Made by a program: the position numbers and the translations under genes | Source of the DNA: Thermoplasmata archaeon | GTDB taxonomy: Archaea > Thermoplasmatota > Thermoplasmata > RBG-16-68-12 > JAFNFQ01 | Reading direction: 5' to 3' | Length of the DNA stretch: 64,000 nt | NCBI GenBank assembly: GCA_041489255.1 | Contig: JBGPQV010000005.1 | Span: forward strand, 78,460 to 142,459 | The notes under the pieces: generated by a model | Database searches by the model: none | What the model saw: only the letters and a program-made list of their open reading frames with translations | What the model was told of the DNA's origin: nothing | Shown: positions 27,558 to 60,898 of the stretch, one piece after another | Numbering within the stretch: the stretch's first letter is position 1 | Layout of the letters: each line of letters opens with the position of its first letter

Positions 27558-28790
27558 ATGACCGAGACAGGGCAACGGAAGGAGATCCGCGCCGCCGCCG
27601 AGCTGAAGCAGCTGCTGACAGACTACTACCATGAGCTTGACTCTGCCCATGAAAGCGGGCAGAAGGTCGCATGGTGCACAAGCGTCGGACCAGCGGAGAT
27701 CCTGCGGGCATTTGGCTTCAAGGTCTACTTCCCCGAGAACCACGCCGCGATGATCGGCGTGCAGAAGGCAGGTGAGAAGTACATCCCCGTGGCGAACGCG
27801 GCGGGCTACTCGCCCGAGATATGCTCCTACCTCACCAGCGACGTCGGAGCGTACATCCAGCATTGGACGCCGCTGGACAAGACCTACGGCGTGAAGAGCA
27901 TCCCGAAACCGGATGTCCTCGCCTACAACACGAACCAGTGCAGGGATGTCAAGGAGTGGTTCTCGTACTACTCGCGCGAGTTCAGCGCTCCCCTCGTCGG
28001 CATAAACTCCCCCAAGTACATCGACGAAGTCGAGGACATGTACGTCGACGATGTCGCAGCCCAGATCGAGAGGGTCGTGAGGCAGCTCGAGGAGATCACG
28101 GAGTCAAAGTTGGATGAATCGAGGCTTGAGGAAACCGTTCGTCTTTCCCTAGAAGCCACGAAGCTGTGGAAGGAGATACTCGAGACTGCCGCGAACGCGC
28201 CGTCGCCGCTCACCTTCTTCGACGGAACCGTCCACATGGCTCCGATCGTCGTCCTGCGCGGGGACCAGAGGGCGGTCGACTATTACCAGCTTCTTCTCGA
28301 GGAGATGAAAGAACGCATTGCGGCGGGTGTGGGGGCCGTGGACGGCGAGAAGCACCGTCTCTACTGGGAAGGCATGCCGATATGGGGCAAGCTGAGGGCG
28401 CTCTCTGAGCAGTTCGCGGAACTCAGGACGTGTGTCGTCGCCTCGACCTACTGCAACAGCTGGATATTCGACGACATGAAGGAGAGCGATCCGGTCAGGA
28501 GCATGGCTCTGGCTTACACAAAACTCTTCATCAACCGCTCAGAGTTGGCTAAGGAGCGCTACATTGCCGAGATGGTGAAGAGGTTCAAGGTCGACGGCGT
28601 CATTTTCCACGATTCCAAGACATGCCCGCACAACTCCAATGTGCGCTACGGGATGCCCGGGAGGATCAAGCTGAATTGTAGAATCCCGACGCTGATAATC
28701 AACGCCGACCTCAACGACCTAAGGCTATACTCGGAGGAGCAGACGAAAACGAACATCGAGGCGTTCGTCGAGCAGATGGAGGGGGCGTGA
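27558..28790 (+). CDS. 2-hydroxyacyl-CoA dehydratase subunit (HgdA/FldB/HadB family)
   Basis: FPENHAA, GYSPEICSY, NQC, VDGVIFHDSKTC, EQTKTNIEAFVE. Confidence 0.9.
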   Translation: MTETGQRKEIRAAAELKQLLTDYYHELDSAHESGQKVAWCTSVGPAEILRAFGFKVYFPENHAAMIGVQKAGEKYIPVANAAGYSPEICSYLTSDVGAYIQHWTPLDKTYGVKSIPKPDVLAYNTNQCRDVKEWFSYYSREFSAPLVGINSPKYIDEVEDMYVDDVAAQIERVVRQLEEITESKLDESRLEETVRLSLEATKLWKEILETAANAPSPLTFFDGTVHMAPIVVLRGDQRAVDYYQLLLEEMKERIAAGVGAVDGEKHRLYWEGMPIWGKLRALSEQFAELRTCVVASTYCNSWIFDDMKESDPVRSMALAYTKLFINRSELAKERYIAEMVKRFKVDGVIFHDSKTCPHNSNVRYGMPGRIKLNCRIPTLIINADLNDLRLYSEEQTKTNIEAFVEQMEGA

Positions 28791-28794
28791 GACC

Positions 28795-29589
28795 ATGGCC
28801 ACGAGGATGTTCGCGGGCATCGATGTCGGCGCATCCGCCACCAAATGCATGATAATCTCGGAGAAGAAGGAGGAAGCAGGATCGGCCATCGCGAAGACCG
28901 GAATCGATCTGGCGGGAGGCGCGAGGCAGGTCTTCGAGGAAGCGCTGTCGAGAGTCGATGGCGGTGGCGTGGCTGTTACTCGAATAGTCTCCACTGGGTT
29001 CGGCAGGAAGAACGTCCCGTTCGCTGACGCATCGAAGACCGAGATAAGCTGCCAGAGCAAGGGCTGCTACGTCTACTTCCCGAAGGCGATCGTGATAGTC
29101 GACATCGGCGGTCAGGATACCAAGGTCATAAGGACCGATGCCGACGGGAAGCTCTTCGGTTTCAAGATGAACAGAAAATGTGCGGCGGGGACTGGAACGT
29201 TCCTGGAGGAGATCTCGCACAGGCTCGACGTCTCTCTCGAGGAGATGAACGCACTGGCGATGCGGTCGAAGAAGGACGTGGAGATCGGCGCGTTCTGCAC
29301 CGTGTTCACCGGCACCGAGATACTCGCGAGGATTAGGGAAGGTGTGAGCAGGGAGGACCTTGCCAAGGGCGTCTACAAGTCCGTCGTCAAGAGGGCCATG
29401 GAGATGGACACCCTCGTCGGCGATGTCGTCCTCACCGGAGGCGTCGTGGCGCACAACGATATACTCATTGACATGTTCAGCGAGATTCTCGGACGCAAGG
29501 TCCTGATATCGCCAAACCCGCAGTTCACCGGCGCGTTCGGCGCTGCTCTCTACGCGCTCCAGGAAGCGGGACAGCCTCGTCTCGAATGA
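28795..29589 (+). CDS. 2-hydroxyacyl-CoA dehydratase activase (HgdC/BadF ASKHA ATPase)
   Basis: GIDVGASATK, DIGGQDTK, MNRKCAAGTG, CTVF, TGGVV. Confidence 0.93.
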   Translation: MATRMFAGIDVGASATKCMIISEKKEEAGSAIAKTGIDLAGGARQVFEEALSRVDGGGVAVTRIVSTGFGRKNVPFADASKTEISCQSKGCYVYFPKAIVIVDIGGQDTKVIRTDADGKLFGFKMNRKCAAGTGTFLEEISHRLDVSLEEMNALAMRSKKDVEIGAFCTVFTGTEILARIREGVSREDLAKGVYKSVVKRAMEMDTLVGDVVLTGGVVAHNDILIDMFSEILGRKVLISPNPQFTGAFGAALYALQEAGQPRLE

Positions 29590-31434
29590 TCATGAGGAGA
29601 TATCCACACCTAGCGACCTCAATCGCTTTGCTGTCGGTCTGCCGTTCTCGTCCCAACCTCGCGCATCGTAGTACGCCTTGATCGCCCGATCCAGCTCGTC
29701 TTGCAGAATCGCCTCCGACCTGTCCTTGAACGGAAGTGCGGACACCTTGAACCTCTGCGGCAGGTCATCGTCTTTCCTTGACAACCCCATGCGCACGGAG
29801 AACATCCTCGCGAGATTGTACGCCCTCTCACCGACCCTCATCATCTCGCCGCGGTCCATCCTCAACCCCGTGACCGCCGATGTCATGTCCCGCACGATGG
29901 GCAGATTCGCCGTGTCGGCGCTCTCGTCCACATCGAACACGCAGAGCAGTAGGGAGTTCACGAAGGACCTCGCGTCCTCGAACTTCTTCAGGACTTCCGC
30001 CTTCCCGTCCATGACGAACCTGTTCATGGTCTTGCCAACGCCTATGTCCGGCGCGGCGACCTTGCCGATCTGGGTGTCGTGGAAACCCTCCATGTGGCTG
30101 GCGCCCCGGGGCGATACTGCGTAGCTCAGCCCGAGACCCTTCTTCCCCCTCGGTTCGTGCATCGCTACCTCCAGCCCCTTGACATGCATCGCGAAATCCT
30201 TGCCGCCGGCCCATTCGCTCACCGCCGCCACGCCCCCGGCGAGTATGTCCCCTATCCCCTTCCGGTGCGCGATCTTTCCGATGAGCTCGCAGGCTCTCTT
30301 GCAGTCGCCCCACTGTATCACGTCGTCGATGAGGCCCAGCTCCGAGGCCTCCATTGCGTAAGCTATCACGTTCCCGGTGCTGATGGTGTCGAGCCCGTAG
30401 GCATTGCAGAGCTGGTTCGCGAGCGCGATCCACTCGAGCTTATCGTTCATCTGGAGCGAGCCGAAGGAAGCGATCGTCTCGTACTCCGGACCGCCATAGT
30501 CGGGCGTGACCTTCTGCCCGCCCGCCTCGGTCTGCACGACTCGCTTGCACCTGACGGGGCACGATGCGCACGTGTCCCTGTCGACCATGATCGTGTCGTG
30601 CATGGTCTCGCCGGATATCCTGGAGGACCCTGCGAAGCTGCCCGCCTGGAAGTTCTTGGTCGGCAGGATGCCCATATGGCTCAGCGCCTCGACGCCGCCG
30701 GAGGTTCCATATTTCCCGAAGGAATTCATGTCCTCGGTTAGGAGGGTCTTGGTGTACGCCCTTCTGGCCTCGTCGAAGGCCTTAGGGTCGTGCACAGAGG
30801 GGTTGAGGTTGCCTTTGACTGCGACTGCCTTGAGGTTCTTGGAACCCATGACGGCCCCCACGCCGCACCGCGCGTTCGCGCGGTTCCTGTCGTTCATTAT
30901 GGCGGCGAAGCGTACCTGGTTCTCACCGGCAGGCCCTATGCAGGAGACTTTGACGTCCCTGCCGTGCTTGGCCCTCAGCCAGTCCTCCGTCTCGCCGCTT
31001 GTCTTTCCCCAGAGCTCCCGAGCGCTGTGAAGCTCGGCGGAGCCCTCCAGGATTGTGAGATACATCGGTTCGCTGGCGGCACCGCGGAACATCAAGCCGT
31101 CATAGCCCGTCCTCTTCAGCTCCGTCCCGAAGAAGCCGCCGCAGTACGCCTCGCCGAAGAAGTTGGTCAGGGGGGAGTGCGTCACGACCACGTGCCTTCC
31201 GCTCCCTCCAATTGATTGGCCGACCAGCGGGCCGGTCATGTAGATGAGGCTGTTGGATGGGGCGAGCGGGTGCGACTTCCTGTACTCCTTCAGGAGGATC
31301 CTGGCCGCCAGTCCTTTCCCGCCCAGGTAGAGGCGCTGCCAGTTCTCCGGAATCGAGTACTTGCCCATGCGGCCCGTCGTCATGTTGACGTCAAGTAATT
31401 TCCCGAAGAGGCCGTCCACCCTATCCCCGCTCAA
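29590..31434 (-). CDS. aor: Tungsten aldehyde:ferredoxin oxidoreductase family protein
   Basis: YLGGKGL, IGPAGEN, MGSKNLKAV, CASCPVRC, GPEYET, GLDTISTG, YYDARGWDENG. Confidence 0.95.
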   Translation of the reverse strand: MSGDRVDGLFGKLLDVNMTTGRMGKYSIPENWQRLYLGGKGLAARILLKEYRKSHPLAPSNSLIYMTGPLVGQSIGGSGRHVVVTHSPLTNFFGEAYCGGFFGTELKRTGYDGLMFRGAASEPMYLTILEGSAELHSARELWGKTSGETEDWLRAKHGRDVKVSCIGPAGENQVRFAAIMNDRNRANARCGVGAVMGSKNLKAVAVKGNLNPSVHDPKAFDEARRAYTKTLLTEDMNSFGKYGTSGGVEALSHMGILPTKNFQAGSFAGSSRISGETMHDTIMVDRDTCASCPVRCKRVVQTEAGGQKVTPDYGGPEYETIASFGSLQMNDKLEWIALANQLCNAYGLDTISTGNVIAYAMEASELGLIDDVIQWGDCKRACELIGKIAHRKGIGDILAGGVAAVSEWAGGKDFAMHVKGLEVAMHEPRGKKGLGLSYAVSPRGASHMEGFHDTQIGKVAAPDIGVGKTMNRFVMDGKAEVLKKFEDARSFVNSLLLCVFDVDESADTANLPIVRDMTSAVTGLRMDRGEMMRVGERAYNLARMFSVRMGLSRKDDDLPQRFKVSALPFKDRSEAILQDELDRAIKAYYDARGWDENGRPTAKRLRSLGVDISS

Positions 31435-37582: not shown

Positions 37583-38585
37583 TGCCGAGCGCCTTGTCGG
37601 TCTTCTCGATGCTCTTCTTCCCGTCCTTTTCCAGCTTCATCATCGCCCGAATCGCGTCGATGTTCTCCGGGACGACGTCGCTCTCTTGGTGGACCGCCTG
37701 GAAGTAGTAGAGATGCTTGTCGTTCACGACGTGCACCCCGTCCTCCCAGACCGCGATCTCGTAGAGGTCGGACCTGTTGCGGGACATGTCCCGCGCGACC
37801 TCCATGATCTGTGCGGTGGATTTGACACCATCCTCCCCCCTGACGAACTTGATTCTCGGCGACCTGCTCCAGACGTCGAGGACATCCTTCGGCGTGGCGG
37901 TCCTCTTGAGCTTCACCGAGATAGCGTGCAGGTGCATGATCGTTGTCGGGACCTTGACCGCAATCGTGTGGATGTTCAGGCTTTTCAGCACGCTCTGCAC
38001 GTCAGGACCGTGGTGCGAGGGCATCTCCAGCTCGGGCTCGATCGCGTTGATCGGCCCCTTCTTGCTGTCGTACGGGTCCGTGGCCCTGCGGACCATCACC
38101 GCCAGGACGCTCTCGATGCCGAAGCTTGACTCGAGGGGATGGAGCGTTCGGATGAGACCGGTCGTGTTGCAGCTCGGGACTCTGACGTAGCTCGCGCCGT
38201 AGCACTCGGAGTAGTTGACGGCGGCATTGAACGAGAGGTTGGTGAGGCTGTGTTCCTCGCCTCCCTGCCAGATGCCTTTGATGTTGGCCTTCTCGTAGAC
38301 GGGCTTGTAGCCGCTCTCCTCTGGCGTGCAGTCTATGACGATCTCGCATTCCTTCAGCAGGTCGTCCAGGGTTCCTCTGACCTTGACGCCCGCCTTGTCG
38401 AACTTCGCGAGGCTGTCCTTGTTCGAGGCATAGAGCGCATAGCCCTTGGCGAGGGCCATCTTCGCCTCGTAGTTCGGCTTGGTCTTCGCGACTCCGACGA
38501 TCTTCATGTCATCTTGCTTGATCACCGCGTCGGCCACTCGTTTTCCTATCGTCCCGTATCCGTTGATCGCGACCTTTGCAGGCAT
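37572..38585 (-). CDS. gap: Type II (archaeal) glyceraldehyde-3-phosphate dehydrogenase
   Basis: NGYGTIGKRVADAV, SCNTTGL, PSHHGPDV, HQESDVVPENIDAIRAM. Confidence 0.97.
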   Translation of the reverse strand: MPAKVAINGYGTIGKRVADAVIKQDDMKIVGVAKTKPNYEAKMALAKGYALYASNKDSLAKFDKAGVKVRGTLDDLLKECEIVIDCTPEESGYKPVYEKANIKGIWQGGEEHSLTNLSFNAAVNYSECYGASYVRVPSCNTTGLIRTLHPLESSFGIESVLAVMVRRATDPYDSKKGPINAIEPELEMPSHHGPDVQSVLKSLNIHTIAVKVPTTIMHLHAISVKLKRTATPKDVLDVWSRSPRIKFVRGEDGVKSTAQIMEVARDMSRNRSDLYEIAVWEDGVHVVNDKHLYYFQAVHQESDVVPENIDAIRAMMKLEKDGKKSIEKTDKALGITG

Positions 38586-38659
38586 TTGATCCCCTCAACA
38601 GTGGGAAGGGGGACACGGAGAAAAACGTTTGCTGAGACCACGCGATGTGATAGCCAATA

Positions 38660-39625
38660 TCACAGGTAGAGGTCTCTCCTGATGCGCGGCAGGAAGGCGG
38701 TGAAGATGGCAATCTTCGTGATCTCCTCGCGGTCGAGCCGCCCGTGGCTGAGGTATCCTATGGCGCCCTGCTTCGACCCCATGCCCTTGATGCCGGTGAT
38801 ACGCTCCATGGCCTGACCCACTGTCATCCCCTTCTCGACGAGCGAGACGACCGCAGGGGGGTAAGCGAAGCCTGGGCCGTGGCCGACCGTCAGCCGCCCC
38901 GCCTTGTCCACTACCGCGCAGTACTGCACATCCAGGTGATCTCTGATTGATTCGTTCCAGAACAGGCCCGCCTCGATCCCGACGCCGAAATCACCGCCAC
39001 CGAGCGCTCTCCTCGCCCTGTTGATCGCGCCGAGCACGACGTCCTGTTCGAGCGGCTCCGGTGGCACCCCGCTCTCGACCGACACGCCGCGCACCTTGAC
39101 CTTGGAATACAATTTCGAGGCGACCGTCCTGACAGCGCTCACCTTCAGTCGGTTGTTCGTGCCGACGTTGATGACAAGAGTCCTCAACATTCGCCCTGTC
39201 CGACCGACTTCCTTCGCCCTGATCCGCGTCGAAGAGATCGGGATGCAATCCTCTGCAAGGACCATCGGGACCGGGAGGAGGTCCAATGGCGGGAACCCTC
39301 GCATCGCGCGCTCCTCGTTGACCCGCACCGCCACCGCCCTTTTCTCGGCGGAGACGACGAGTGCATCGAGCTCCTCGCTGACTGCAGGCCCGAGTTCATC
39401 GTCGATTCGCACGATCTCGAATCCTTTCGCGCCCTTGCGGCGGAGATAGGATTCCAGGTTGCGTTTCCTCAACGCATACGGCGAGACTCTCTTTCTAGTG
39501 CGCCTTGCCATCTCGTCGCTCGTGAGCCCGACCAGCAGCTTCCCGCCAGTGTCGATTGCTTTCTTCAGCAGTGCTTCATGGCCGGCGTGGAGGATGTCGA
39601 ACGTCCCGCCGACCGCCACCCTCAC
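38660..39625 (-). CDS. coaD: Phosphopantetheine adenylyltransferase fused to inosine/xanthosine triphosphatase (YjjX)
   Basis: GGTFDILHAGH...ISSTRIR followed by GTNNRLKV...GAINRA...GIEAG...GAIGYLS. GTG start at 39625. Confidence 0.9.
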   Translation of the reverse strand: MRVAVGGTFDILHAGHEALLKKAIDTGGKLLVGLTSDEMARRTRKRVSPYALRKRNLESYLRRKGAKGFEIVRIDDELGPAVSEELDALVVSAEKRAVAVRVNEERAMRGFPPLDLLPVPMVLAEDCIPISSTRIRAKEVGRTGRMLRTLVINVGTNNRLKVSAVRTVASKLYSKVKVRGVSVESGVPPEPLEQDVVLGAINRARRALGGGDFGVGIEAGLFWNESIRDHLDVQYCAVVDKAGRLTVGHGPGFAYPPAVVSLVEKGMTVGQAMERITGIKGMGSKQGAIGYLSHGRLDREEITKIAIFTAFLPRIRRDLYL

Positions 39626-39627
39626 GC

Positions 39628-39828
39628 TTAGGCCCCCCAGAGCCAGATGACAATCACGACCGCGAAGGCTATGAAGCTGCCGAAGTAGAGCATGAGCAGC
39701 TGGCGCTTCTTCTTGCGGATGAGGTTCTCCCGTTTCGCTTTGCACTCGTCGGAGCAGTATTTCTCGGTGCCGACCATGGCCTTCTCGCACTCTGCACAAT
39801 GGCGGTGCTGGGGAATCCGCTCGACCAC
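39628..39828 (-). CDS. DUF2116 family Zn-ribbon membrane protein
   Basis: IPQHRHCAECEKA...YCSDEC plus C-terminal TM. TTTATA about 20 bp upstream of the GTG. Confidence 0.85.
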   Translation of the reverse strand: MVERIPQHRHCAECEKAMVGTEKYCSDECKAKRENLIRKKKRQLLMLYFGSFIAFAVVIVIWLWGA

Positions 39829-39904
39829 GATGTCGCATGGGAGCGGGATATAAAGAGGTTGGCGGCGGGACCGTTCGAGGCGGGGCGGCAACGATCGGAC
39901 CGAC

Positions 39905-40372
39905 TTGTGGATACTTATCCACAACCGCCCGCTGCCGCCTCAGGGAGCGGAGGCATTCATCTTCATCACTGCTAACCTCCTATCCACCTCCTTCTTGATC
40001 GAAGAGTAGTGGGCGGTCAACGACTCCAACGCCCGTCTCCTCGTTCTATCGGCACCTGCGGGCCCCAGGTACCGCCATCTCCTCCTGCTGTATCCGTTCT
40101 CTCGCGTGTACGACCAGAGGTAGACATACCGCCTTCCGTTGACCCTCCGGACCTCGAGGCCGCATCCGATCTCCATGTGGATACTTATCCACAAACCCGG
40201 CTTGAACGGCATTGCGGGGGAGGGGCGAAAGTGACCTCGCCCGCTCGGGGGGAAGTGAGCTGACTTGTGGAACTTATCCACAAGTCCCGAAAGCGGCCTC
40301 TCCCCGGCCGTGGCGGCTTGCGACCGGAGCGGCGTTTGCAGGATTTGTCGAGTTGTGGATACTTGTCCACAA
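39905..40372. repeat. Four copies of the palindrome TTGTGGATA-CT-TATCCACAA
   Basis: 39905-39924 perfect; 40175-40194 ATGTGGATACTTATCCACAA; 40265-40283 TTGTGGA-ACTTATCCACAA (arms extend over 40262-40286); 40353-40372 TTGTGGATACTTGTCCACAA. Confidence 0.95.
39940..40176 (-). CDS. 78-aa basic putative DNA-binding protein (SSV1 integrase N-terminal/D-335-like)
   Basis: LEVRRVNGRRYVYLWSY...RRRWRYLGP followed by an amphipathic helix. The ATG lies inside palindrome copy 2. Confidence 0.75.
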   Translation of the reverse strand: MEIGCGLEVRRVNGRRYVYLWSYTRENGYSRRRWRYLGPAGADRTRRRALESLTAHYSSIKKEVDRRLAVMKMNASAP

Positions 40373-40495
40373 GAGGGTAATCGATTTGACCCTTGCGGGC
40401 AAGGTTTTTACATTTTTCGCCACGAGCATTTAAAGGACGCCGAAGCGCCTTTATACTACATCGGCATTGAACGCGGGAGTCTGCCGGTGGGGGTC

Positions 40496-40759
40496 ATGAA
40501 GAAGCTAGGTGTCGTGGACAACCTCTCCTACGACGGCTCGATACTCGTGCGGGCCGAGTTCGCCCCGGGCAGGGGCGCGCAGGTTCTTGACGCAAAGAAG
40601 AACCCGGTCGGCAAGATTTTCAAGGTGTTCGGCCCGGTCAGGAGGCCTTTCGCTGCGGTGAGACCGAGCAGGAAGGTGTCGCTGAGCCTCATCGGTTCCG
40701 AGGTCTATCTCGAAGAGGGAGAACATGCCGAAAAACCCAAGAAAGGTCGAAGAAGCTGA
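40496..40759 (+). CDS. gar1: H/ACA RNP protein Gar1
   Basis: MKKLGVV...[15 protein letters not shown]; conserved position directly upstream of tfb. Confidence 0.88.
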
Positions 40760-41666
40760 TGAAGTCACAAGGTGCCCCGAGTGCAACAGCACGCACCTGA
40801 GGTTCGACTACGAAAGAGGCGAGCTGGTCTGCGACGAGTGCGGTCTCGTCATTTCCGACCAGATGATCGACCAGGGCCCGGAGTGGCGGGCGTTCGACAT
40901 GGAGCAGGGTGAGAAGAGGGCGCGCACCGGCGCGCCGATGACCTACACGATTCACGACAAGGGCCTTTCCACGACGATAGGCTGGAAGAACAAGGACTCC
41001 TACGGCAAGAGCATCCCGACGAGGAGCCGCGCGCAGCTGTACCGCCTGAGGAAGTGGCAGCGCAGGATCAGGGTGAGCAACGCGGCTGAGAGGAACCTTG
41101 CGTTCGCCCTCAGCGAGCTCGACCGCATGGCGAGCGGCATGGGCCTGCCGAGGAATGTGCGGGAGGCGGCCGCCATGATCTACCGCAAGGCGGTGAACAA
41201 GAACCTCATCCGGGGAAGGTCGATCGAGGGTGTCGTCGCCGCCAGCCTCTATGCGGCTTGCAGGCAGTGCAACGTCCCGAGGACCCTCGACGAGATTGCG
41301 GGAAGCAGCCGCGTCGGGAGGAAGGAGATAGGCAGGACCTACAGGTTCATGACGCGCGAGCTGAAGCTGAAGCTCATGCCGACCCGCCCCCAGGACTACG
41401 TCTCACGGTTCTGTTCCGAGCTCAAGCTGAGCGGTGAGGTGCATTCGAAGGCCATCGAGATCCTCAAGGATGCGGCAGACAAGGAGCTCACCTCGGGCAG
41501 GGGACCGACCGGCGTGGCGGCAGCCGCCATATACGTCGCGTCGATCATGGCGAACGAGCGCAGGACGCAGCGCGAGGTCGCTGATGTGGCGGGAGTGACC
41601 GAGGTCACCATCAGGAACAGGTACAAGGAGCTCACCGAAAAGCTCGGCATAAAGATCGAACTCTAG
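40725..41666 (+). CDS. tfb: Transcription initiation factor IIB
   Basis: CPEC...CDECG Zn ribbon, [10 protein letters not shown], two cyclin repeats, [13 protein letters not shown]. Confidence 0.99.
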
Positions 41667-59665: not shown

Positions 59666-60898
59666 TCAATCCAGCGTCGTCTGGAGCCTGATCCTATAGC
59701 CCTTAAGCCCCGCCAGGAATTCGTCCCTCTCGAGGATTCTCAGCACATCCATTGCCGGGACGCTCGCTTCGATTTCCTTGGTCCTCCCGCCGCGCCCGAA
59801 CGACTTCACCCGCGCATGGACCAAGCCGAGCATGTCGAGCTCGGAGATCAGGTCGGTGACGCGCCTCCCCGTGAGCCTGGGCAGGCCCGCCCTCCCGCAA
59901 AGGTCGCAGTAGGTCGTGTAGACCTCGCCCGTCGTCAGCTTGGGGTTGCCAGCTTCCTCGTTGAGCAGCAGCCCCAGGAGTATGACCTTGCTCTGCGTCG
60001 GGAGGGATTTCACCGCCTCCACGACCGTGTCCAGGTCGATCTTGTTCCTGGCCGTCTGGACATGCTGCTCGGTGATCGTGCTGGAGCCAGACCTATCGGC
60101 GAGCTCCGCCGCGACCCTGAGCAGGTCGAGCGCCCTCCTGGCGTCTCCGTGCTCCTGCGCGGCCAGCGCGGCGATCAGGGATATGACGGAGTCGCTGGCG
60201 ACCCCGTTGTCGAACGCTAGCTTGGTTCTCTGCTCCAAGATGTCCTTGAGTTCGTCCGCGTTATACGGCGGGAAAACCATCTTCTCGTCGCTCAGCCTGC
60301 TCCGCACTCGCGGGTCGAGGGACTCCGTGAACTTCAGGTCGTTGCTGATCCCGATGATGCTGACCTTCGCGTTCTTTGTGTCGTCGTTTATCTTCAGGAT
60401 CTGGTAGAGGAAGTCGTCGCCGCTCTTGTAGACTATCTTGTCTATCTCGTCGAGGGCGATTATGACGACGCGCTTCTTCTCGTCCAGCTTCTCCACGAGC
60501 ATGCTGTAGACGCGGTCCGTCGAGAGGCCCGTGAACGGGATGCGCTGGTCGAGATTCTCGATGAACCTGTTGCCGACGCTCTGCAGGACGCCGTACGCCG
60601 TGTCCACCAACTCGCAGTTCATGTACAGGAAATCCGCGGCGCCGGCCGCGTCCGCCTTCTTGAACTCCTGCTCGATGTACTTGACCACGGCGGTCTTGCC
60701 GGTCCCGGTCTTTCCGAAGATGAGGACGTTTGAAGGCTGCTGGTGCCTCAGGGCGGGGACCAGCACCTGCGCTAGCTGGTCTATCTGATGCTGCCGGTGT
60801 GGCAACTTGCCCGGGATGTACGACGGCCTGAGGATCTCCCGGTCCATCCTGAACGTCGGATGGGTACGAAGATATGGCTGGAAGACGCTTTCTTCCAT
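59666..60898 (-). CDS. cdc6: Orc1/Cdc6 replication initiation protein
   Basis: LPHR, GKTGTGKT, LDEID, FPPYNA, GDARRALDLLR, ELDMLG, GRGGRT. Confidence 0.98.
   Translation of the reverse strand: MEESVFQPYLRTHPTFRMDREILRPSYIPGKLPHRQHQIDQLAQVLVPALRHQQPSNVLIFGKTGTGKTAVVKYIEQEFKKADAAGAADFLYMNCELVDTAYGVLQSVGNRFIENLDQRIPFTGLSTDRVYSMLVEKLDEKKRVVIIALDEIDKIVYKSGDDFLYQILKINDDTKNAKVSIIGISNDLKFTESLDPRVRSRLSDEKMVFPPYNADELKDILEQRTKLAFDNGVASDSVISLIAALAAQEHGDARRALDLLRVAAELADRSGSSTITEQHVQTARNKIDLDTVVEAVKSLPTQSKVILLGLLLNEEAGNPKLTTGEVYTTYCDLCGRAGLPRLTGRRVTDLISELDMLGLVHARVKSFGRGGRTKEIEASVPAMDVLRILERDEFLAGLKGYRIRLQTTLD

Follow-up and report, generated by a model that had tools for sequence, protein, structure and literature searches.

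The 64,000-nucleotide stretch of thermoplasmatal DNA analysed here (the window) contains, at 39869..40372 on the minus strand, a cassette of about 504 bp that is probably a site-specific DNA-binding autoregulator together with its own operators, duplicating as a unit. It consists of a downstream palindrome with 36 bp of adjoining sequence, an open reading frame (39940-40176 including the stop, minus strand) whose translation is a basic protein of 78 residues (P0001), the promoter region of this ORF, and three upstream palindromes. This reading is built on established features: the anatomy of the cassette, an architecture that extends across its protein family, the pairing of each protein subfamily with its own palindrome, insertion of the cassette at its present location, and purifying selection on the ORF. 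Gene-plus-site cassettes of this family in uncultured Thermoplasmata are apparently undescribed so far, no description of the family having been found in the open-access literature searched.

Anatomy of the cassette

Four copies of a 20-base palindrome lie within 470 bp, with the asymmetric centre in the same orientation in all four (no strand is assigned to any of them). The first, TTGTGGATACTTATCCACAA at 39905-39924, is a perfect match and ends 15 bp beyond the ORF stop, with the TATA-like box of the DUF2116 gene (39848-39854) about 50 bp downstream. The second, proximal copy (ATGTGGATACTTATCCACAA, 40175-40194; one mismatch) overlaps the ATG at 40174-40176 by 2 nt. Two more lie upstream of the ORF: a 19-nt copy at 40266-40284, TTGTGGA-ACTTATCCACAA, with a 1-base deletion in its left arm, and TTGTGGATACTTGTCCACAA at 40353-40372, with one mismatch, which forms the distal edge of the cassette and stands about 77 bp from the TATA-like box of gar1, on its upstream side. 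Successive spacings are 270, ~90 and ~88 bp. An ungapped search recovered copies 1, 2 and 4; repeated on 100 dinucleotide shuffles, it gave no match in any of them. Copy 3 is recovered only if an indel is allowed. The four palindromes and the 78-residue ORF are real, far beyond chance; their common orientation and their positions relative to stop and ATG are as reported in the initial annotation of this DNA. An Rfam scan of 38500-41500 at E <= 1 returned two sub-threshold chance rows only.

The flanking genes, context lying outside the cassette, are also those first described: DUF2116 (39628..39828, minus strand; Pfam PF09889, E 5.6e-13) on one side and, on the other, gar1 (40496-40759) and tfb (40725-41666), spanning 40496..41666 on the plus strand, which were matched in relatives and whose pairing is kept in all 30 loci examined. 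The DUF2116 gene probably starts at a GTG 23 nt below its TATA-like box, start and box both being read by eye, and an upstream coaD-like gene was likewise identified by eye.

The cassette also holds a conserved motif upstream of the ORF at 40218..40230 (minus strand), which reads TTTCGCCCCTCCC on the sense strand of the ORF and may serve the promoter or be bound by a second factor. Upstream of the palindrome, variants of TTTCGCnCnCCCC are found in different subfamilies, and the motif is cassette-specific rather than general in the genome, where its type yields six matches, the same number as a reversed control, two of the six being the two cassettes.

A family of paired proteins and palindromes

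An exhaustive profile search, used for the family count, found 135 relatives of the protein among 1.84 billion representative proteins; a word-index homologue search had found 3 close relatives only. The family is narrow, being found in uncultured Thermoplasmata with up to 11 matches per genome. We surveyed 81 loci from 36 genomes. A start-side palindrome is present in 80 of them, ending 0-18 nt ahead of the start (38 nt in family f3), so that the symmetric site at its own promoter or start that characterizes a palindromic-operator autoregulator is a near-constant feature of the group. Start-proximal palindromes scoring >=8 occur in 68/81 loci; the same score is reached in 37/3000 windows drawn at random and in 14/1405 of those taken upstream of long ORFs. 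The centre of this proximal site lies roughly 9 to 49 nt ahead of the start codon, varying by subfamily, and a single geometry of repression is accordingly not established. A stop-side copy, between -30 and +130 of the stop, accompanies 51 of 80 loci, at a distance of 255-380 bp (mostly 255-307) from the start-side site and with no clear helical periodicity. Extra distal upstream copies are found in 13/80 loci, most family members having one or two sites only. The initial proposal of a compact module of cis-acting sites and a cognate protein is therefore supported and can be generalized, since the paralogues carry a start palindrome of their own and often a stop one.

Each protein subfamily pairs with its own palindrome sequence. 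Protein and palindrome covary (Mantel r = 0.78, n = 79, reached by 0 of 2000 permutations), a signal inflated by shared descent because a duplicated cassette carries gene and sites together; with the same caveat, protein and site change together across paralogues in the manner that an autoregulator calls for. Genomes that share the flanks of one orthologous position differ in the site found there, which is of the GTTACCCTTA, GTTGGCCTTA or GTTAACCTTA type; both arms have changed jointly, and residues of beta-1 in the protein differ too. The family provides a natural series of such pairs: genomes show directly how protein and site have each changed, which makes a recognition code testable.

The encoded protein

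AlphaFold models the 78-residue protein with a pLDDT of 93.7 as three strands (residues 2-12, 15-26 and 29-39) followed by one helix (43-76), and no helix-turn-helix is seen in the model. Neither Pfam nor NCBIfam gave any match or enzyme domain for it; PHROGs had no match for the window protein and a weak row (0.0071) for the third paralogue described below; and a PDB sequence-profile search returned coiled-coil noise only. Foldseek with the model found nothing significant (best E 0.19 in PDB, 0.013 in BFVD). The nearest clusters in the ESM Atlas are unnamed Thermoplasmatota proteins, and the nearest named lead there, DUF6788 at 0.84, is below a trustworthy level and was not mentioned in the open-access literature searched.

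Small proteins that read DNA through a beta-sheet, often at symmetric or repeated sites, include the ribbon-helix-helix repressors Arc, MetJ and CopG as well as the lambda, Tn916 and P4 integrase domains and AP2 domains. The topology of the model, three strands and then a helix, resembles the integrase and AP2 type, and a P4-like integrase arm-binding domain (3rmp) appears non-significantly in the Foldseek list (E 0.55, TM 0.32). However, there is no Pfam match to such readers, and the strands (11-12 residues) and helix (34 residues) of this model are much longer.

A further lead is PF07935, the N-terminal family of the SSV1 integrase (ORF D-335-like), which matches 2 of 48 members over residues ~9-38, though below Pfam's gathering score (15.0 and 13.1 bits; cut-off 22); it gave no match in the window's own protein. 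A hairpin motif, G-x-x-Y-x-Y ... G-K ... Y-x-G, is common to PF07935 and the 78-residue family. In the part of a review that treats them (PMC8371274), the N-terminal extremity of SSV-type integrases is described as a multimerisation part. In those integrases it is joined to a catalytic domain, and the present proteins have none. Two longer members of the family are also known: P0129 has an added winged helix-turn-helix domain with a Pfam match, and P0117 has an apparent winged helix-turn-helix by eye, with no Pfam family at E <= 0.01. These fusions count in favour of the autoregulator reading; taken with the sub-threshold PF07935 lead, they also mean that the conserved domain could serve in oligomerisation and not itself read the DNA. 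Long frames around some other homologues were considered as fusions and rejected as artefacts of high G+C content.

A probable autoregulator and its operators

Among the three roles first suggested for the locus, an autoregulated switch fits best, and origin and centromere find no support. We infer DNA binding, an oligomeric state, repression and looping. Most likely, the protein would bind the 20-bp palindromes as a symmetric oligomer. Occupancy of the site overlapping its own start codon and promoter region would bring about autorepression, and the stop-side site, in conjunction with upstream copies ~90 bp apart, would make cooperative binding or looping feasible. The sites of the cassette could also let the protein affect neighbouring promoters. 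The cassette is copied as a whole; in this genus one copy came to lie between the divergent promoters of DUF2116 and gar1-tfb, and a second beside rps12. So viewed, the family offers compact orthogonal repressor-operator pairs.

The closest functional parallel is with ORF80 of pRN1 and Stf76 of pSSVx in Sulfolobus, proteins of 76-80 aa which, in the sections of the report that concern them (PMC4027180), bind cooperatively to two symmetric TTAA-N7-TTAA sites that lie 60 bp from each other upstream of the gene encoding them, one site overlapping a promoter element. As far as those sections go, the size class, the self-targeting and the multiple spaced sites are shared with the window protein, a likeness drawn from the published descriptions. 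The differences are that Stf76 is there a winged helix-turn-helix protein (PMC4027180), whereas three beta-strands and one helix are modelled here; that ORF80 and Stf76 are plasmid- or virus-borne, whereas our cassettes are chromosomal and without viral, phage or plasmid matches; and that a stop-codon site, possessed by the cassettes, is absent from the arrangement described for ORF80 and Stf76.

Copies, insertion and possible mobility

The gap between DUF2116 and gar1 measures 655 bp here and 157-175 bp in 14 relatives. None of 28 gar1 loci from outside the genus yielded a family ORF, and of 24 rps12 loci just two, both in genus g1, have a cassette. As it was not found at either locus beyond the genus, the cassette is a lineage-specific insertion, placed between the promoters of DUF2116 and of gar1-tfb. 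In the same genome (G000), a second cassette, on another contig at G000:C8:80819-81412, has rps12 and a membrane-protein-like ORF as neighbours. It has five palindromes spaced 88/90/90/270 bp, with upstream copies 89-269 bp from the gene, and its ORF is 94% identical to that of the window at the protein level. The two cassettes align with 89% identity (453/509), the alignment beginning exactly at the distal palindrome, with the opposite boundary good to ~14 nt.

Among the observations that the initial annotation named as telling against a dedicated module were a motif scattered over many unrelated promoters and orthologues that lack the palindromes. On both counts the outcome favours a module. 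The full motif occurs at 11 sites in G000, nine of them inside the two cassettes, and the orthologue at this locus in a same-genus genome (G001) retains both the start-proximal and the stop-side palindrome. The upstream palindrome array is not conserved between the two species, as G001 has no counterparts of palindromes 3 and 4 at this locus and a single upstream copy compared with three in G000.

Other traces in the genome are more divergent or incomplete. The ORF at C1:376613-376819, a third paralogue with 45% identity, uses another palindrome, TGTTATACCTACTTAGGGATAACA; one copy abuts the ATG and two more follow the stop. At C1:379538 there is a decayed 5' fragment comprising promoter, palindrome and 16 codons, and at C14:33992 a solo palindrome retaining both cassette flanks, as expected from recombination between flanking sites. 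In G001 the two copies differ from each other by a dS of 0.037 and from their positional orthologues by a dS of 0.117, a pattern indicative of exchange between copies. Another solo site, C28:14073, lies between divergent genes for a small GTPase and a peroxiredoxin, and the same genes flank its counterpart at G001:C36:44924; the conservation of at least one non-cassette site in two species hints at a small trans regulon. Such behaviour, in which gene and sites are copied jointly, placed between core-gene promoters and reduced in places to solo sites, would exemplify the spread of regulatory modules in archaea, here in a group without a cultured representative or genetic system.

These copies invite an extended version of the autoregulator model, one we regard as rather unlikely in its full form: that the cassettes are a new kind of portable regulator-plus-operator unit based on an undescribed DNA-binding fold, that this fold has diverged in palindrome specificity to give many mutually orthogonal pairs of protein and site, and that the cassettes occasionally copy themselves into core-gene promoters (gar1-tfb, rps12) by recombination at their own palindromes, rewiring housekeeping transcription.

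They also raise the question of whether the cassette might be first and foremost selfish or mobile, its palindromes being sites of recombination or transposition, its small protein aiding spread or retention (say, by recognizing the sites or acting as a directionality factor for a recombinase whose gene lies elsewhere), and host regulation a side effect. The insertion itself, the start of the duplicated stretch exactly at a palindrome, the decayed and solo copies, the unequal number of upstream units in the two species, the mutual closeness of the G001 copies and the weak similarity to an integrase N-terminal family are all in keeping with this, yet we hold it to be improbable as the primary function, as the cassette has no recombinase or transposase, no target-site duplication was seen at the two junctions examined, no relatives were found in viral contigs, phage records or plasmid records, and a dN/dS of 0.15-0.24 among four copies of the ORF places it under purifying selection. 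Movement, moreover, appears to be rare, since 59/81 loci have flanking genes in common with at least two other loci, implying long vertical retention.

Genes flanked by their own palindromes are familiar from REP elements with RAYT transposases and from integron cassettes with attC. The likeness extends to the bracketing of a gene by cognate imperfect palindromes of clade-specific sequence and to solo and decayed copies. The present cassettes differ in encoding a protein of 78 aa only, with no HUH or tyrosine-recombinase motif or domain, in having a few sites in each genome instead of hundreds, and in being mostly stable in position. A mobile-unit interpretation is compatible with the autoregulator reading.

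Less likely roles: RNA hairpins and chromosome organization

The position of the proximal palindrome, overlapping or abutting the start codon, would also suit a pair of RNA hairpins at the 5' and 3' ends of a small mRNA, which the protein would bind to control its own translation or mRNA stability, much as a phage coat protein binds its operator hairpin. In one large subfamily the 3' arm holds AGAGGT, read as Shine-Dalgarno-like, and the stop-side copy holds the TAG stop; conserved aromatics lie on beta-2 (Y17, Y19, W21 and Y23); and the weak Foldseek rows, none of them significant, include the RNA-binding coat proteins of PP7 and fr, the nucleic-acid-binding Pur-alpha and the single-stranded-DNA-binding PC4. 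We nevertheless consider such hairpins very unlikely. In 105 distinct sites, the stem mismatches on the sense strand show no G-U-compatible preference (33 G-T, 52 A-C and 48 transversion-type), and the lack of any excess of G-T wobble argues that the sites behave as DNA elements. Nor does an mRNA hairpin account readily for palindromes as far upstream of the gene as those in the C8 cassette, for the C28 site, where a sense transcript is unlikely between divergent genes, or for a palindrome centre that reads AAGT relative to the gene in some subfamilies and ACTT in others.

Clusters of sites ~90 bp apart that adjoin the gene of their presumed binding protein, in two cassettes that both adjoin core operons, likewise recall a chromosome-organising array, whether a centromere-like locus (one of the original suggestions), an insulator, or a loading site for a nucleoid-associated protein. 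We give this only a slight probability. The partner ATPase gene that adjoins partition loci of the ParABS, SegAB or AspA kind was found neither at the window locus, with no ParA/SegA-like gene among the four neighbours (coaD-like, DUF2116, gar1 and tfb), nor among the C8 neighbours. The array is unequal in size between the two species, few members have distal upstream copies, and up to 11 matches per genome, with a separate site for each subfamily, are ill-suited to a single segregation locus.

The DnaA-box resemblance

The string TTATCCACA, which we take to be the E. coli DnaA-box consensus, is literally present in copies 1-3, as is TTGTCCACA in copy 4, just as first recorded; counted over both strands of the whole genome, TTATCCACA has 14 occurrences where base composition predicts 10.4, with 4/14 within the two cassettes and an approximately background rate outside them. 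Together with the clustering of four sites within 470 bp, and with a 694-aa protein encoded on contig C3 that has a DnaA-type AAA+ domain (PF00308, 216 bits), this could suggest an Orc-independent replication origin whose repeats are bound by an initiator of its own, a role raised at the outset that is now so improbable as to be set aside: the 694-aa protein has DUF835 in place of domain IV; the box-binding domain IV itself (Bac_DnaA_C, PF08299) was not found in G000 (96% complete) at E <= 0.1 by a search positive in 10 control bacteria; the spacers between the window palindromes are, as read from the sequence, G+C-rich and without an A+T-rich unwinding stretch; cumulative GC skew has no turn at 40 kb; and the cassette, a genus-specific insertion, was not found at this locus outside the genus.

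The locus shares with bacterial oriC a half-site containing the 9-mer and several clustered copies, but in place of asymmetric 9-mers beside an A+T-rich element it has symmetric 20-mers of which the boxes are halves, in a recent insertion whose relatives use unrelated half-sites. It also lacks what marks an Orc1/Cdc6 origin, namely an adjacent orc1/cdc6 gene, repeats flanking an A+T-rich stretch, and conservation in relatives. The window does have an ordinary orc1/cdc6 gene, at 59666-60898, 19 kb from the cassette and adjoining an A+T-richer gap, beside which nothing convincing was found in the way of ORB-like repeats. The DnaA-box match, which the initial annotation had allowed might be convergence, is coincidental, because the genome yielded no DnaA DNA-binding domain and no half-site but that of this subfamily resembles the box. 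For annotation, a literal cluster of DnaA boxes in an archaeon need not concern replication.

Anatomy and insertion of the cassette

All four sites that the initial annotation described around the 78-aa ORF (39940-40176, minus strand) are present where it placed them. As read from the sequence, palindrome 1, a perfect TTGTGGATACTTATCCACAA at 39905-39924, lies 15 bp past the stop of the ORF, and palindrome 2 (40175-40194, one mismatch) is on its ATG; palindromes 3 (40266-40284, a one-base deletion) and 4 (40353-40372, one mismatch) lie upstream, the successive spacings being 270, ~90 and ~88 bp. Three of the four are recovered by an ungapped search tolerating at most three mismatches, which gave zero matches in every one of 100 dinucleotide shuffles, and the fourth is recovered once an indel is permitted. 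This anatomy, flanked by a DUF2116 gene (Pfam E 5.6e-13) on one side and the gar1-tfb pair on the other, is well established. Upstream of the DUF2116 gene, at 38660 to ~39630 (minus strand), the translation reads by eye as a phosphopantetheine adenylyltransferase-type cytidylyltransferase joined to a second domain, which is NTPase-like.

The window corresponds to C5:78460-142459 in an assembly of 2.74 Mb and 41 contigs. A genome-wide scan located a second cluster of the window-type palindrome on contig C8, with five copies at 80819, 80907, 80997, 81087 and 81357 (spacing 88/90/90/270 bp) enclosing an ORF that encodes a protein with 94% identity to the 78-aa protein of the window; as in the window, one palindrome overlaps the ATG and one comes after the stop. 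The two regions are 89% identical across 509 aligned columns, with one edge of the homology exactly at a palindrome and the other ~36 bp past the stop-side palindrome, limits by which the cassette is defined as ~504 bp (window 39869-40372). Counting the motif genome-wide had been proposed as a check, and nine of the 11 window-type sites prove to fall within the two cassettes (four in the window, five on C8), the others being a looser one at C15:9542 and a solo one at C28:14073, which has a small-GTPase gene on one side and a peroxiredoxin gene on the other; a genome-wide reversed-pattern control gave 0 matches.

Among 30 gar1 loci, a family ORF lies within 1.5 kb of gar1 only in this genome. 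In the second species of the genus (G001) the contig begins 130 bp upstream of gar1 and the cassette sits on a different contig, at its end; the remaining 28 loci have no family ORF within 1.5 kb. In 14 of these 28, DUF2116 and gar1 are neighbours that diverge across 157-175 bp; in the window the gap measures 655 bp, a difference equal to the length of the cassette, and native promoter stretches are kept on both sides of it. As judged from these comparisons, the window cassette is evidently an insertion between DUF2116 and gar1. At rps12, this genome and G001 are the only ones with the cassette among 24 loci.

Palindromes accompany the family

The coupling of gene and palindrome was examined in a non-random sample of 81 family loci, 22 taken automatically and 59 picked across genomes and E-values, leaving out two orc1 loci, one matchless filler locus and a spurious second HMM domain in locus L013. 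Within the 70 nt preceding the start, 80 of the 81 have a palindrome with arms of 7 nt or more and no more than one mismatch; the distance from its end to the start is 0-18 nt, rising to 38 nt in family f3. Palindrome scores of at least 8 were obtained for 68/81 loci, versus 37/3000 random windows and 14/1405 windows taken upstream of this genome's long ORFs. A second copy lies at -30 to +130 of the stop in 51/80 loci, and further upstream copies, spaced 48-136 bp, are present in 13/80. The sites follow the general pattern (G)TTnnnnnTA-AG-TAnnnnnAA(C), with inner positions varying by subfamily. In the largest subfamily (L011, L014, L021 and ~30 other loci of family f4) the stop-side palindrome TACCTCTACTTAGAGGTA codes for the last residues, ..HTST, and holds the TAG stop, so that the site constrains the C-terminus of the protein; the 3' arm of its start-side copy contains AGAGGT, which we read as Shine-Dalgarno-like. 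Most subfamilies also have a conserved element, TTTCGCnCnCCCC (window 40218-40230), on the upstream side of the proximal site; with 6 matches, versus 6 for its reversed control, it is not a motif found generally in this genome.

Protein identity and site identity vary together (Mantel r = 0.78, n = 79 after dropping two loci with a mis-detected or absent site; 0/2000 permutations reach this r). At one orthologous position, recognized by the flanks that its loci share, the site is of GTTACCCTTA, GTTGGCCTTA or GTTAACCTTA type depending on the genome, with both arms changed jointly and different residues in strand beta-1 of the protein; locus L022 has a hybrid palindrome, one arm of each type. 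Shared descent contributes to these correlations.

A protein family confined to archaeal lineages in named records

The 78-aa protein has no match in Pfam, NCBIfam or PHROGs, and our literature search found no description of its family. A protein search placed the family in 36 of 61 genomes of the order, with as many as 11 matches in a single genome (f4 25/26, f3 5/8, f2 3/6, f6 1/4, f1 1/1, f7 0/14, f5 0/1). When 1.84 billion representative proteins were searched exhaustively with a profile, only 135 relatives emerged at E <= 0.001, all of at most 232 aa, the named records being uncultured Thermoplasmata, Methanobacteriota or Euryarchaeota MAGs. Purifying selection acts on the 78-aa ORF (dN/dS 0.15-0.24). 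The AlphaFold2 model (15-row alignment; mean pLDDT 93.7, confident) comprises three strands (2-12, 15-26, 29-39) and one helix (43-76). Longer forms of this domain are rare among representative proteins: in P0129 (197 aa) Pfam matches a winged helix-turn-helix of ArsR/TrmB-like type at the C-terminus, and P0117 (201 aa) has by eye a similar-looking N-terminal region and no domain match in a Pfam scan. Apparent fusions, suggested by long open frames around some family matches, were rejected as high-G+C artefacts.

Foldseek returned no significant match for the model (best E 0.19 in PDB, 0.013 in BFVD); its weak, mixed rows included Pur-alpha, PC4, COMM domains, XLF, the P4-type integrase arm-binding domain, RNA-phage coat proteins and archaeal virus proteins. 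ESM Atlas neighbours are unnamed Thermoplasmatota clusters. In L005 (G058:C33) and L006 (G043:C5), GCG stands in place of ATG directly after the palindrome GTTACCACC....GGTGGTAAC, with no standard start codon nearby; these are either decaying copies or cases of unusual start codon use.

A proposed autoregulatory module and its alternatives

We read the locus as an autoregulated regulator-operator module built on an uncharacterised protein family, its cassette duplicating as a unit, and we lean towards a DNA-binding autoregulator as the mechanism. The nearest functional analogues are ORF80 and Stf76, small archaeal autoregulators each of which binds a pair of symmetric sites, separated by 60 bp, in front of its own gene (PMC4027180); unlike the cassette protein, these are described there as winged helix-turn-helix proteins of plasmids and viruses. 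On the other hand, 2 of 48 family members show sub-threshold similarity to the SSV1 integrase N-terminal family, and the N-terminus of SSV-type integrases is described in PMC8371274 as a multimerisation part; the family domain may thus be an oligomerisation module rather than a DNA reader.

The palindromes might instead act as RNA hairpins. Stem mismatches in 105 distinct sites comprise 33 G-T, 52 A-C and 48 of transversion type, with no excess of changes preserving a sense-strand hairpin, and some copies sit between divergent genes or a long way upstream of the gene; DNA sites are therefore the favoured reading of these sequence patterns.

The initial annotation also raised an origin of replication and proposed confirming that dnaA is absent. 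A search of the genome for Bac_DnaA_C found no such domain. A strong DnaA-type AAA+ domain (PF00308, 216 bits) does exist, in a 694-aa protein on contig C3 (~27998-30079; L121:769-2850, minus strand), where it is fused to a C-terminal DUF835 and the DnaA box-binding domain is lacking. The 9-mer TTATCCACA occurs 14 times versus 10.4 expected, four of the 14 in cassettes. Cumulative GC skew climbs across the window and does not turn at 40 kb, and an orc1/cdc6 gene (410 aa, Cdc6_C 92.6 bits) lies at 59666-60898 (minus strand), adjoining an A+T-richer intergenic gap (60899-~61090), with a second copy at C1:~251884; a simple repeat search beside orc1/cdc6 gave no clear ORB-type repeats. Together with the insertion evidence, these observations leave the origin unsupported, as they do a centromere-like role, there being no partition ATPase gene among the four genes neighbouring the cassette.

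Copying, possible exchange and stability

A third paralogue (C1:376613-376819, 45% identity) has its own palindrome, TGTTATACCTACTTAGGGATAACA, unlike that of the window, which abuts the ATG and recurs twice past the stop. Palindromes of this C1 type also mark decayed copies. The one at C1:379538 retains only the promoter region, palindrome and first 16 codons. At C14:33992 a lone C1-type palindrome is bordered left and right by sequences matching the outer flanks of the C1 cassette, which is what recombination between flanking sites would leave. C1-type outer arms with another inner core form a perfect intergenic palindrome, GTTATCCATAAGTATGGATAAC, at C1:18183-18204, beside which no family ORF was detected. 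The site at C15:9542-9561, between divergent genes, shares the outer arms TTGTGGA...TCCACAA with the window site and differs in its centre (CGTTCA); a pattern search matched no counterpart in G001, and the site may be a target that has diverged or may have arisen by chance.

Flanking genes are common to at least three loci for 59 of the 81 loci (53 of the 59 on both sides), for example, with names assigned by eye, a class-I tRNA synthetase with an ABC-type permease, or a KaiC-like gene with carS, which argues that movement of cassettes is rare. In the genus, the full set of five sites is preserved at the C8-type copy, and the solo C28 site is kept in G001 between the same two genes. In the gar1-side copy of G001 the ATG-proximal site is the sole upstream site, with the flank joined directly onto it, and window sites 3 and 4 thus have no counterpart there. 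The two G001 copies differ from each other by a dS of 0.037, versus 0.117 to their positional orthologues, a pattern that suggests exchange between copies. The contig break in G001 falls within the cassette-gar1 spacer, where the end of C48 (L025:1800-1847) and the start of C56 (L086:1-40) carry inverted copies of GGTTTGTAGAAATCC beside a repeated CTCTTGCGGG, an arrangement resembling the ends of an insertion sequence missed in assembly, with its terminal inverted repeats and target duplication.
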